DNA of 64,000 nucleotides from Candidatus Latescibacterota bacterium (GTDB taxonomy: Bacteria > Latescibacterota > UBA2968): contig OZ242010.1 in NCBI GenBank assembly GCA_965204745.1, forward strand, positions 1,632,001 through 1,696,000. Reading direction: 5' to 3'. The notes below the pieces were generated by a model. That model had not been told where the DNA came from. It worked only from the letters and a program-made list of their open reading frames with translations, and made no database searches. How positions within the stretch are numbered: position 1 is the stretch's first letter; every line of letters starts with the position of its first letter. Shown one piece after another: positions 6,351-9,300 of the stretch. The position numbers were made by a program, and so were the translations under genes.

Positions 6351-9300
6351 TCATCGAGGCGAGATGGGCAAGCCGACAAATAATCGGGTGTATTCGTCGG
6401 TGAGGGGGTCGCGTTCGTTTTTTTGTGCGGCGCGGGCAAAGACGACGCCCGGGGTTTCTGACCTGCGGGCGCGGGCGAAGACCCCATAGCCGCCGGGCGC
6501 GCTCTGCAATTCCAAATCGCTCTGAATTGCCAGCATCTCGGCGAGCGTGTTGGACAACCCCCAGCGCGCGCCAATCGCGCGGGCAAAAAGCTCCTCGGGG
6601 GTCAGCCCTTCTCGAAAACCGCGCTTCACCGGGATGAACTCGCCCCGGGCGTTTCGCACGCTGCCCTGCGGGGCCACATAGAGTCTGAGTTGCAACAAGG
6701 TCCCGCGCGCGCCACTTTGGACCAAGAGGGCGGGCACGCCGAGTTCATCGTCGTCATAGCCGCGGAATTGCGCCAACGCGGCCGACACCTCGTCCGGATA
6801 ATCGCGCCAGGCATCGGGGTCGTCGTCCGCTGGCGGCTCGGGCCACGGGAGGGATGCGCCGATGAACGCACTCATGGACGCGCCGGTTTTGCGCGCTGTG
6901 TCAAAGCCCAGGGCTTGCAAGCGCGTTGCCAAATCGAGCGCGGCTTTCGCGCCATCGCGTGCCATGGTGGCTGCCAGCCACGCCATCACTTGATTCCCGT
7001 CGACAAATTCCCCTTCCCGCGTGACCTGATCGCCCACTGCGGCGCTGATTTCCCGCAGGCCCGCGTCTGTCATGCTCATCAGCGCGAGGCCGAACAGGGC
7101 GTCGTGTGTGGGATGTACTTTTTCGCGCATAATCAGGCCCGGATCGCGCGTCAAGTGGGCAATGGCAGACAGGTGATCGCCTGCGGACGCCTGGCCTTCG
7201 GCGGTCAGGGGCACAAAGACCGCCACTTGGTCCCCGTCAAAATCGAGATTCATCAAGGCGCAAAGCCGGATGCACACGCGAATCGCGTCGCCGGCAACGC
7301 GCACCGGGCGACACGCCACAAACGCGGTTGGCGACACCGCGGGCCTGCGGAGCACAACGGCCCACAACTCGGCCATCGCCGCGTCCAAAGCCGCGGTTGC
7401 TTTTTGCGACCGCCGGCTCACTTCTTTTGCCCCCACTGCGCGTGCGGCAAAAGGGCCAAACAGGGTCCACGCCATGGCTTCGGGGATGCCGACTTGATCG
7501 TATCGCAAGTCGGCCCCCGGCACGGCGACGGACCGGCCGCTGAACAATGCACGGGTGTAAAAGCGCGCGCCCGGCAAATCGCAAAAATCGGCAACGCGCG
7601 CGCCCAGGGTTTTAAGCCCGCGCTGGATCAAGACCTCGGGCGCGGCATTGGCGATCATCTCGGTCAAGCGGTTGTTGGCCGCTTGCAAGGCGCGGGGCGC
7701 GTCGCTGCCCACATGGGTGAGGGTATGCCCGGACAACCACGGATGCGGCACCGGGCGCGCCAGCGCGATGTCCCCCCCGCGCTTCAGGGAAAATGTTGCG
7801 CCGTGGTCGTCCAATGCGACCGTGATGCCGCGGCTGTCCAACTGCTCGGTCAATTCTTCAAATGCTGGCGATGGCGCGGCCGGGACAACGGCCCCTTTGG
7901 AGACGCGCTCGGCTAAGGTGGCGGCATCGGATCGACTTGCGGAACACGTATTGAACAGATCGCGGATGACCCCAAACGCGCCTGCTTCGCGCAGGGCCAA
8001 AAAGTCCGCCTCGCCCACTTCTTGACCGGGCCGGCCGGGCGCGACCCCCATGTGGATTTTGTCTTGGGTGTTCGACCACGGGATCGCCATCGCCTTCACG
8101 GGCCGGCCGGGCGCGACCCCCATGTGGATTTTGTCCGCGGCCAGATGCGACGTGCGGCCCCAGTACACCCAGCCCACGGTCGTGCGGCGCAACAGGGGTT
8201 CACCGTTGAGGCGCAGCGCGTCCATGCCGTCTTCGGGCAAGCCGTGTCGCTTCAACTCGGCGCGGATTTCATCGTCTTTTGGCGCGGCAAAGATGGGCGC
8301 GATCACCGGCTCGCCTTTGGCTTTTGCAATGCGGCCCATGACGGCTTCGCGCACCTGCCCAAAGTTGAGGCGAGACACCAGGCCGCACACGCTCATGATG
8401 AGTTCCACAGGCGTGCCGTCGGACAGGGTGGGCATTTCGTCGTCGGGCACAATGCGCGATACCACGCCCTTGTACCCGTGCCGATTGCTGAGTTTGTCGC
8501 CCGGGGCGACGCGGTTGGGTTGCATCATGCGATGGGCCGCGGATTCGCTCAGGACGAGTGCGTCTTCGTGTGCGTCCTCATCCCATGCCATGAACGCGGT
8601 GAGCAAGTTGTACCCAGTCCAAAAATGGGGATCGCGCGGTTCGCACCCGGTTTGCACCAGCGCGGGTTCGGATTCCAATACCGCGCCGTCGTATTGCGCG
8701 TGGTAGGCATGCCACGCGCCGCGGTCATCGCGCGGCATATCGGGGCCTGGCGCGCCGATCCACTGGCGCATCATGTTCACGCCCATCAAAACGCGATTCG
8801 TGTCATCGTGTTCCAAAAACGGGGTGACGGACGCGCCAATGCCCACGCGCTTTTCGGGCGAATCGTCTTCGATCACCAACTTGCCATCGCGGATGGTCGC
8901 GCCCTGTGCCACCTCCAAAATGCGGGCGATATTCGGACCTTCGGGCGTGCAATAGGGGCAGACGCGCCCATCGTGAGATGGGTGATACCCGTTTGCCAAC
9001 CCCTCGTCCTGATCGAGAATGGGGAGCAATGTTATCCGCCGCAAGTGAACGTGCATGTCGTGAGAGTTGGTCGCCTGCAAAAAGTGAGACGTGGATTCAT
9101 TCGTGAAAAATGCGCGAATCCAATCGCCCAATGGCATCCACGTCGCAACGCTGTTTTCGAGCATGTTGGGCATCCCATCCAACCGGCGGGCGATATAATC
9201 GCGCAGTTGCTCGCCCACGCAATAAATATCGGCACGCGCCAAATCCACCTCGGTGGGCACGGGCACCACGGTGCGGAAAAAGCCATCCACCTTAAACCGC

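Follow-up and report, generated by a model that had tools for sequence, protein, structure and literature searches.

A pruned, fused RpoB-RpoC-like protein and its ECF sigma factor: a candidate minimal RNA polymerase in Latescibacterota and other bacterial phyla

In the textbook view, bacteria own one five-subunit RNA polymerase (RNAP) core, and promoters are chosen by exchangeable sigma factors. Full-length fusions of beta and beta' are known in Helicobacter and Wolbachia, where they serve as the cell's only polymerase, and the non-virion RNAPs of jumbo phages have neither alpha nor omega and use a sigma-like specificity subunit. As far as the accessible text of PMC7598289 goes, these phage enzymes are reduced relatives of beta and beta'. 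YonO, from the Bacillus subtilis prophage SPbeta, is a single chain of ~100 kDa with no detectable trigger-loop homology, according to the accessible part of its description (PMC5467207). The same part reports that YonO adds nucleotides as efficiently as E. coli RNAP, with less pausing and higher processivity, at lower fidelity and with no cleavage activity, and that it has few residues in common with multisubunit enzymes, a divergence placed earlier than the last universal common ancestor (PMC5467207). Here we describe P0001, a single-chain protein of 1051 amino acids (aa) related to both RpoB and RpoC, and P0002, the extracytoplasmic function (ECF) sigma factor encoded beside it in Candidatus Latescibacterota bacterium (assembly GCA_965204745.1). 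Both genes lie in a stretch of 64,000 nucleotides (nt) of contig OZ242010.1, positions 1,632,001 to 1,696,000, which we call the window. Is P0001 an enzyme, and does it use the sigma factor next to it? We propose, with a probability of about 0.5, that the two genes would make up a self-activating module and encode a minimal RNA polymerase that depends on sigma.

Architecture and active site of P0001

The following parts of the window define the pair.

9561..10154 (-): P0002, ECF sigma factor, 197 aa, sigma-2 and sigma-4 only (Pfam, TIGR02937)
6351..9506 (-): P0001, fused pruned RpoB-RpoC-like protein, 1051 aa (open reading frame (ORF), Pfam, NCBIfam, phmmer, AlphaFold2 (AF2))
7806..9506 (-): beta-like half of P0001, residues 1-567 (E. 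coli beta ~118-148 plus 447-1341, with deletions; superposition, profile block map)
6354..7805 (-): beta'-like half of P0001, residues 568-1051 (superposition, hhalign)

Against the sequences of the Protein Data Bank, phmmer aligns P0001 with bacterial beta in four colinear pieces (2e-48) and with beta' (1e-26); because of these values, the similarity is not due to chance. Pfam recognises Rpb2 domain 3 (residues 142-203), Rpb2 domain 6 (329-462; E-value 9e-36) and Rpb1 domain 2 (719-775; 3e-12). Both double-psi barrels are present with their catalytic motifs, DFDGD on the beta' side and ED and GDK..RHG.KG on the beta side. With ~40% of the size of beta plus beta', P0001 falls far under the NCBIfam equivalog cut-offs, at 178.8 bits vs 801 for rpoB (TIGR02013) and 104.3 vs 963.5 for rpoC (TIGR02386). 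Normal rpoB (a 1270-aa frame) and rpoC (1369 aa) genes are found elsewhere in the same genome, a single contig of 5.48 Mb in which the fused gene is single-copy.

For the domain map, family profiles built from 36 or 90 members were aligned to E. coli RpoB and RpoC. An AF2 model of P0001 was built on 90 relatives, and the beta'-like half was also modelled separately. In naming parts of E. coli beta and beta' (flap, rudder, lid, trigger loop, SI3, jaw, Zn finger) we follow the literature. Segments of P0001 are given below by residue, from the profile alignment unless stated otherwise.

56-86: E. coli beta 118-148
88-200: beta 447-576
213-256: beta 653-696
293-321: beta 787-820
322-330 (8517..8543, (-)): flap-replacing junction, in place of beta 821-1057 (profile alignment, AF2)
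331-401: beta 1058-1128
397-457: beta 1178-1240
458-481 (8064..8135, (-)): lineage-specific insertion of 72 nt, with a perfect 37-nt copy of 8027-8063
482-567: beta 1241-1341, the beta C-terminal end
580-608: beta' 103-131 (weak match)
605-641 (7584..7694, (-)): clamp-helix hairpin (aligned 606-644 = beta' 271-309; profile alignment, AF2)
648-778: beta' 342-483
898-997: beta' 684-806, funnel and bridge helix
970-1001 (6504..6599, (-)): bridge helix, 32 residues (AF2, profile alignment)
last 50 residues (6354..6503, (-)): like the beta' C-terminal block, directly after the bridge helix

Residues 493-567 match the last part of E. coli beta (1266-1341), after which the same polypeptide continues directly with beta'-like sequence. 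There, hhalign places residues 605-989 on beta' 268-788 (E 5e-33), and the last 50 residues show a weak, colinear match to beta' 1328-1348 (independent E-value 0.04 in a 2-sequence search). No counterpart in P0001 was found for E. coli beta 577-652, 821-1057, 1129-1177 and most of 1-446, nor for beta' ~1-100 (save a short strand), 132-262, 310-341 and ~807-1317. About seven residues stand for the whole trigger-loop, SI3 and jaw region (beta' past ~806 to ~1318). The full RNAP domain set (lobes, flap, clamp with Zn finger, lid, rudder, trigger loop, jaw) is not present in P0001, and the deletion boundaries are identical throughout the family. The clamp helices are retained though the beta' segments on either side of them (~132-262; rudder 310-341) are deleted.

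The AF2 model of P0001 has a predicted local distance difference test score (pLDDT) of 93.5 and a predicted template modelling score of 0.92. It places just a short helix (321-326) and no extra domain at the flap junction, three short helices only after the bridge helix, and a helical hairpin (605-619 and 624-641) at the clamp helices. The first half superposes over 517 residues on Clostridium thermocellum beta 20-1159 (8i23_C; Z 29.8, root-mean-square deviation 2.3 Å, 32% identity). In the separate model of the second half, superposition on E. coli beta' 16-1364 (8fvr_G; Z 28.2, 5.7 Å) takes in 473 of 486 residues, with 26-28% identity to beta', so that no residues are spare for a trigger loop, SI3 or jaw. 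Residues 568-604 contain neither a cysteine nor a Zn-finger cysteine pattern. An 18-residue stretch of P0001 aligns weakly with Mycobacterium smegmatis beta' 90-107 (5tw1_D), which we take to lie just past the Zn finger.

An original prediction, made from window positions 6351-8580, which amount to the C-terminal 70% of the P0001 ORF, had described selective pruning of a polymerase, and this description holds. It had the flap deleted, and just 12 residues lie between the preceding conserved 10-residue block and GDKLSNRHG, where beta 821-1057 has no counterpart; it had the trigger loop deleted, and 29 residues lead from GARWGLSNT to the RpoC C-terminal block. The zinc-finger cysteines of beta' that it missed are indeed absent from the cysteine-free stretch 568-604, and the clamp coiled-coil that it recognised is the hairpin aligned to beta' 271-309. 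Alignment to bacterial core RNAP and structural superposition leave no divergent flap or trigger-loop equivalent over, the finding that would have spoken against the original description.

What, then, remains of the active site? Conservation was counted in 90 full-length relatives from several phyla that are 36-89% identical to P0001.

7230..7244 (-): catalytic DFDGD, D755/D757/D759 = E. coli beta' D460/D462/D464; 97%, 99% and 98% conserved
R720 = beta' R425; 89%
R934 = beta' R731; 87%
position aligned to beta' R352; 87%
E314 and D315 = beta E813 and D814; 91% and 96%
K338 = beta K1065; 92%
K346 = beta K1073; 97%
R379 = beta R1106; 100%
R238 = beta R678; 98%
H454 = beta H1237; 93%
position aligned to beta R529; 93%

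These E. coli residues presumably contact the two metals, the phosphates of the nucleoside triphosphate (NTP), the ribose and the hybrid. That the whole catalytic constellation is kept across phyla argues for catalysis rather than a mere binding scaffold, and from its sequence P0001 is very probably an active enzyme. Catalysis, like promoter use and targets, is what we infer for P0001. The original prediction had also suggested a slow or short-product polymerase, which does not follow from the loss of the trigger loop: YonO, in the accessible account, is fast, efficient and processive without trigger-loop homology, so that this loss does not by itself make a poor enzyme (PMC5467207).

The 72-nt insertion adjoins H454, the counterpart of E. 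coli beta H1237. It duplicates a 12-residue peptide (repeat region 8027-8135, residues 458-506) and is disordered in the AF2 model (pLDDT <50 at residues 461-480). Relatives of 1028 aa do not have it, and those 89-91% identical to P0001 do (P0005, locus L019). Metagenome contigs from two other studies (runs X3 and X4) are gapless across the insertion; those of X1 and X8 break within it.

Family, sigma partner and promoter

A word-indexed search returned 581 proteins at E <=0.001. Among the matches listed, relatives are mostly ~1000-1070 aa long, and all database names are either 'hypothetical' or lists of Pfam domains. When the family profile was run against 1.84 billion representatives, ~60 clusters (50% identity) of at least 940 aa, plus fragments, scored above 750 bits, and ordinary full-size beta-beta' fusions (1613-2794 aa) among the same representatives reached at most 450 bits. 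Judged by sequence searches, the P0001 family is discrete and unnamed. The ESM Atlas contains further unnamed single-protein clusters with Rpb2_6 and Rpb1_2, whose representatives measure 1221, 1330, 1453 and 1609-1787 aa; such fused polymerases of intermediate size may belong to a wider series of reduced forms.

Relatives are encoded in 194 species (one genome each of 185,579 species were searched) from at least seven phyla. We kept 79 loci from these genomes for neighbourhood analysis, labelled Latescibacterota (42), Poribacteria (14), Chloroflexota (10), Planctomycetota (4), Gemmatimonadota (3), Armatimonadota (2) and Hydrogenedentota (1), with three unlabelled. Within the phylum of the window, 63 of 168 genomes have the gene, as do 18 of the 52 whose completeness is 90% or more and whose contamination does not exceed 5%. 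In the genus it is retained in every one of the 20 other genomes, and in the taxonomic family in 24 of 30. None of the 36 pattern matches in IMG/VR viral contigs is a relative. Plasmids yielded ordinary rpoB and rpoC only, with no match covering at least 80% of P0001; mobile-element neighbours conserved across the loci were not seen; and P0001 matched no PADLOC defence family, whereas PHROGs gave generic RNAP and sigma families only. The 8.4-Mb genome of one relative (G076) contains two polymerase-sigma pairs, at ~1.43 Mb and ~3.37 Mb.

P0002 ends 54 nt upstream of P0001 on the same strand. It matches Sigma70_r2 (8e-19), Sigma70_r4_2 (7e-16) and TIGR02937 (119.5 bits, cut-off 42.9) and reaches no specific subfamily cut-off, the best being PRK12515 (127.9 vs 236). 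D47, Q50, F53 and W57 of its core-binding region, DLTQEVFLRVW, are invariant. P112 and W114 of the linker motif P-x-W-M-I-D are invariant or at least 90% conserved in 44 orthologs, which is unusual for a linker.

An ortholog of P0002 lies upstream of the polymerase gene, on the same strand, in 78 of the 79 loci (phmmer 1e-29 to 1e-112), often overlapping the polymerase start by 4 nt; at locus L075 the sigma gene is cut by the contig end. At the exception, L054, unrelated ORFs stand upstream, with a sigma homolog 4 kb off on the opposite strand. Positions 4107-5158 of L054 hold two ORFs: one of 143 aa, which when inspected by eye looks like an IS200/REP-type tyrosine transposase, and one of 187 aa on the other strand. 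In 11 Latescibacterota loci, sigma and polymerase genes are 1.2-2.3 kb apart. Nine of these, from one clade, have an ATP-binding cassette exporter (586-620 aa, ABC_membrane plus ABC_tran) in between (L006, L007, L008, L010, L011, L016, L021, L023, L028); L012 and L015 have another insert of ~1.2 kb. No neighbour other than the sigma gene is shared across phyla in the 79 loci. Minus-strand 'clusters' beneath the sigma gene, considered as conserved neighbours, were rejected as antisense ORF artefacts.

Within the phylum, a sigma ortholog (E <=1e-35) accompanies the polymerase in 60 of 63 genomes and occurs in 2 of the 105 that lack it, in one of them where a contig ends. No more than 19 sigma candidates per genome were scored in this search, a limit that may explain the three genomes with no detected partner. 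Patristic distances in the polymerase and sigma trees correlate at r = 0.94 (78 pairs, with L054 and L083 left out), as expected of neighbours; this shows co-inheritance, not contact. A functional tie between sigma factor and polymerase is strongly supported by co-occurrence. The flanking ORFs contain no anti-sigma domain, and neither does P0001, for which Pfam and NCBIfam report only RNA polymerase families. The original prediction was thus right that the polymerase gene occupies the slot usually held by an anti-sigma gene.

The boundaries of the unit and the frame beyond it are as follows.

10383..10408 (-): ECF-type promoter, TGAACC (10408-10403), 13-nt spacer, CGGTGTC (10389-10383) (family motif, position weight matrix)
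10155..10382 (-): 5' leader of the sigma gene, unusually long at 228 nt, holding a dispersed-repeat fragment
6302..6339 (-): terminator-like hairpin, 10-bp stem with 8 G-C pairs, then TTTTTTGTAT (consensus scan)
5944-6354 (-): P0003, 136-aa ORF, start overlapping the polymerase stop

Of 78 regions upstream of sigma genes, 73 contain the motif TGAACY-N13-CGGTGTC, which ends 17-24 nt from the start codon in 55 of the 73, and one clade has CGGCGTC or CGGAGTC in place of CGGTGTC. The five regions that lack the motif comprise three with near variants and two that are incomplete. A position weight matrix scan of the 5.48-Mb genome gives 30.3 bits for the site of P0002, which was itself in the training set, and 16.9 bits for the next. 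The exact pattern with its 13-nt spacer occurs twice in this genome, one occurrence being the sigma's own, and it recovers the sigma-proximal site in the complete genomes of five relatives (5/5). The hairpin, rich in G+C and with a run of T after it, stands 12 nt past the polymerase stop codon, in a region not enriched overall for such sites. As predicted from these elements, the unit is promoter, sigma, polymerase and terminator, and it is the only recognisable target of the sigma factor.

The repeat fragment in the leader (~10275-10335) has ~280 matches across the genome. A ~149-bp unit is tandemly arranged at 10509-11276 and 10212-10440 (periods 149 and 238) and dispersed in ~190 copies of at least 80 nt in this genome; in sponge and marine metagenomes, contig depth over this repeat is hundreds of times that of the flanks. 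No Rfam match falls in or near the operon.

P0003 was considered as a third component and rejected: none of the 79 loci encodes a homolog, Pfam gives no match, and the ORF lies beyond the terminator-like hairpin. Inside its 5' part are a hairpin (6339-6312) and an 11-of-12 sigma-70-like promoter (6242-6214); a shorter P0003, starting near Met57 under its own promoter, seems more likely. By eye, the C-terminus resembles small antitoxin-like proteins. Downstream of the module, the PhyH family of dioxygenases is represented by two neighbouring paralogs (4293-5171 and 5102-5920, (-)), and 3379-4053 (+) holds a PspA/IM30 gene. Upstream, 11547-19028 (-) encodes a protein of 2493 aa with Calx-beta, He_PIG and fn3 repeats, probably at the cell surface. 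At 33838-34132 (-), the window has a full-length Rfam match to the 5' ureB small RNA (RF02514; 131.6 bits vs a gathering score of 40).

Readings of the sigma-polymerase pair

In the reading we propose, the polymerase stems from a head-to-tail fusion of bacterial beta with beta'. Besides the clamp helices it keeps little more than an active-site module, made of the two double-psi barrels, the hybrid-binding elements, the bridge helix, the beta C-terminus and the beta' C-terminal block, and it has lost most of the N-terminal third of beta (the lobes), the flap, Zn finger, rudder, trigger loop, jaw and probably the lid. The ECF sigma factor and the ~1050-aa polymerase would be co-transcribed from the sigma's TGAACY-N13-CGGTGTC promoter as far as the hairpin. 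Sigma on the host core enzyme would turn the operon on; the mini-polymerase would then take the same sigma on its clamp helices, and sigma-directed, DNA-templated RNA synthesis would follow without alpha, omega or a trigger loop. In principle, the fusion makes the alpha scaffold unnecessary. A closed loop of sigma and polymerase implies some output that promoter searches do not see.

The clamp helices are the canonical docking site of sigma-2, and the flap tip is the usual anchor of sigma-4. Complex prediction for the beta' half (residues 566-1051) with P0002, each supplied with an alignment, gives weak support, at 0.39 (runs 0.18, 0.49 and 0.39), whereas the highest of three controls is 0.01. 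At least 28% of contacts are shared between the runs, with a partner pLDDT of at least 63. Of 80 solved complexes, 58 pass the mark applied, as do 2 of 110 mismatched pairs; passes with a score <=0.60 number just 7 among the solved complexes and include both mismatched pairs. Structures of sigma with beta' have been solved, so the predictor may owe the pass to memory. In favour of a direct partnership, the clamp hairpin is kept amid deleted segments, the sigma linker is conserved, and the sigma gene is almost never found without the polymerase gene; we infer that P0002 would bind P0001 directly.

Several observations weigh against this proposal. Some concern the protein. The flap tip, the usual sigma-4 anchor, is deleted in P0001, and the complex score is a weak pass only. 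At the clamp-helix positions of E. coli R275, E295 and A302, which we take to be important for sigma-70 binding, the family has A, A/G and R. Core positions of the bridge helix are conserved at 56-74% only, and the equivalent of beta' N458, presumably a ribose-contact residue, is N in just 60% of relatives, with Asp or Glu in that alignment column in several other members. The rest concern the regulon: no target beyond the operon was found, and the full promoter is essentially unique in its own genome. In the five complete genomes of relatives, extra pattern matches number 0, 0, 1, 0 and 4, vs 0, 0, 1, 1 and 1 for reversed-pattern controls. Spacers of 10-20 nt are not enriched in the own genome (0-7 matches each), and the 7 matches for N12 fall at 5 different places, GC-rich and coding-like, of which two are duplicated. 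Nor are -10-only motifs enriched upstream of crude gene calls, with 7 occurrences of CGGTGTC in sense orientation against 20 in antisense.

A stronger form of the proposal, slightly short of an even chance in our estimate, is a free-standing orthogonal two-protein system: polymerase and 197-aa sigma would by themselves suffice to open TGAACY-N13-CGGTGTC promoters and to transcribe from them, with no need of alpha, omega, flap, Zn finger, lid, rudder and trigger loop. Such a system would be smaller than any sigma-dependent RNA polymerase known, and a deletion experiment by nature on the needs of sigma-dependent initiation. Sigma-4 and the P-x-W-M-I-D linker would then dock on a new surface, and the product RNA may be unpredictable from promoters, for instance if it comes from a non-canonical template.

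Could P0001 be an active polymerase of which the sigma factor is no subunit? Sigma on the host core would then just switch the gene on, after which the enzyme would work by itself on an unusual template, with RNA-templated synthesis, primer or oligonucleotide synthesis or 3'-end extension, perhaps in a response to stress or conflict. This reading we consider fairly unlikely. The conserved active site suits such an enzyme, and the sole sigma promoter is the operon's own, as if the polymerase were the entire regulon. With the sigma-4 anchor, the rudder and probably the lid gone, the exit channel would be open; the positions aligned to E. coli sigma contacts are altered; and two-barrel enzymes of similar size include YonO, which is sigma-independent as far as its accessible description goes (PMC5467207). 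The clamp hairpin, however, is kept where its beta' neighbours are deleted, the sigma linker is conserved, sigma occurs without the polymerase in 2 of 105 genomes only, and the predicted complex passes, if weakly, at 0.39 vs 0.01. Also against it are the lack of a PADLOC match and of any relative in the viral contigs or plasmids searched.

It is improbable that P0001 is a catalytically idle decoy that sequesters the sigma factor in an anti-sigma role, giving negative feedback with a nucleotide/metal site as release sensor. Its gene does fill the anti-sigma slot with no anti-sigma domain nearby, the clamp helices on which it would hold sigma are kept, the complex prediction is a weak pass, and no sigma targets beyond the operon were found. 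However, a loop of sigma and decoy with no other promoter would have no output. Anti-sigma domains of ~100 aa suffice to bind sigma, and a conserved 1000-aa fold (pLDDT 93.5) is costly for that purpose alone. A decoy needs neither the catalytic Asp triad nor the second-metal E/D nor the basic residues for NTP and hybrid, yet these are kept at 87-100%. The original idea of a mimic with its metal/NTP site as sensor is disfavoured by the same metal ligands and basic residues in the 90 relatives.

That P0001 is a decaying remnant of an rpoBC duplicate or an assembly artefact, as the heavy domain loss and the 72-nt insertion beside an active-site segment might suggest, is highly improbable, given an intact frame in 79 loci from at least seven phyla, retention in all 20 other genomes of the genus, catalytic motifs that are invariant or nearly so, the same deletion boundaries family-wide, and independent metagenome contigs from other studies that carry the same gene and insertion.

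Comparison with known systems

A second core-like enzyme, with a private sigma factor, has been retained over long evolution in several little-studied phyla. If active with sigma, it defines the minimal RNA polymerase that depends on sigma and directly tests whether initiation and elongation can do without flap, trigger loop, lid, rudder and lobes; synthetic biology would also gain a compact expression module that is independent of the host. If active without sigma, it would add a new cellular enzyme to the two-barrel polymerases. In both cases a testable function would be gained for several hundred 'hypothetical proteins', the 581 matches. We found no description of the P0001 family in the literature, with most subscription journals outside the search. 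RpoB, RpoC, Rpb1 and Rpb2 are absent from the main text of the ECF reclassification paper, and its supplementary tables could list the group (PMC7826278).

How does the pair compare with what is known? ECF sigma/anti-sigma modules share with P0002 and P0001 a two-domain ECF factor, a promoter of GAAC-type -35 and GTC-type -10 that is self-directed (by prediction, in the present pair), and a downstream partner. Here, in contrast, the partner is a polymerase homolog, and other promoters were not found in six genomes.

The bacterial RNAP core has in common with P0001 both double-psi barrels, DFDGD, GDK..RHG.KG, the bridge helix, the clamp helices and a partner of the sigma-70 family, whereas it is made of two chains (1342 plus 1407 aa in E. 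coli) rather than one of 1051. The full-length beta-beta' fusions (NF011417 and NF007172) have the same beta-then-beta' order and are the best NCBIfam matches of P0001 (3.8e-53 and 8.1e-47). Unlike P0001, they are complete, with 2839-2890 positions, and P0001 reaches 180 and 159 bits vs their cut-offs of 4632 and 5372.

The non-virion RNAPs of jumbo phages are multisubunit, split, highly divergent and phage-encoded, whereas P0001 is single-chain, bacterial-type and chromosomal. YonO, as far as its accessible description goes, is closer in form, being likewise a single chain of ~100 kDa with no trigger loop and most accessory domains absent; however, it is remote from multisubunit RNAP, whereas P0001 is plainly of bacterial type (RpoB 2e-48). 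YonO is phage-borne, whereas relatives of P0001 are absent from the IMG/VR viral contigs searched, and the accessible text on YonO does not mention a sigma partner (PMC5467207), whereas the P0001 family has one in 78 of 79 loci. Single-chain two-barrel polymerases and beta-beta' fusions are thus already known; a drastically pruned bacterial-type fusion with a private sigma factor appears to be new.

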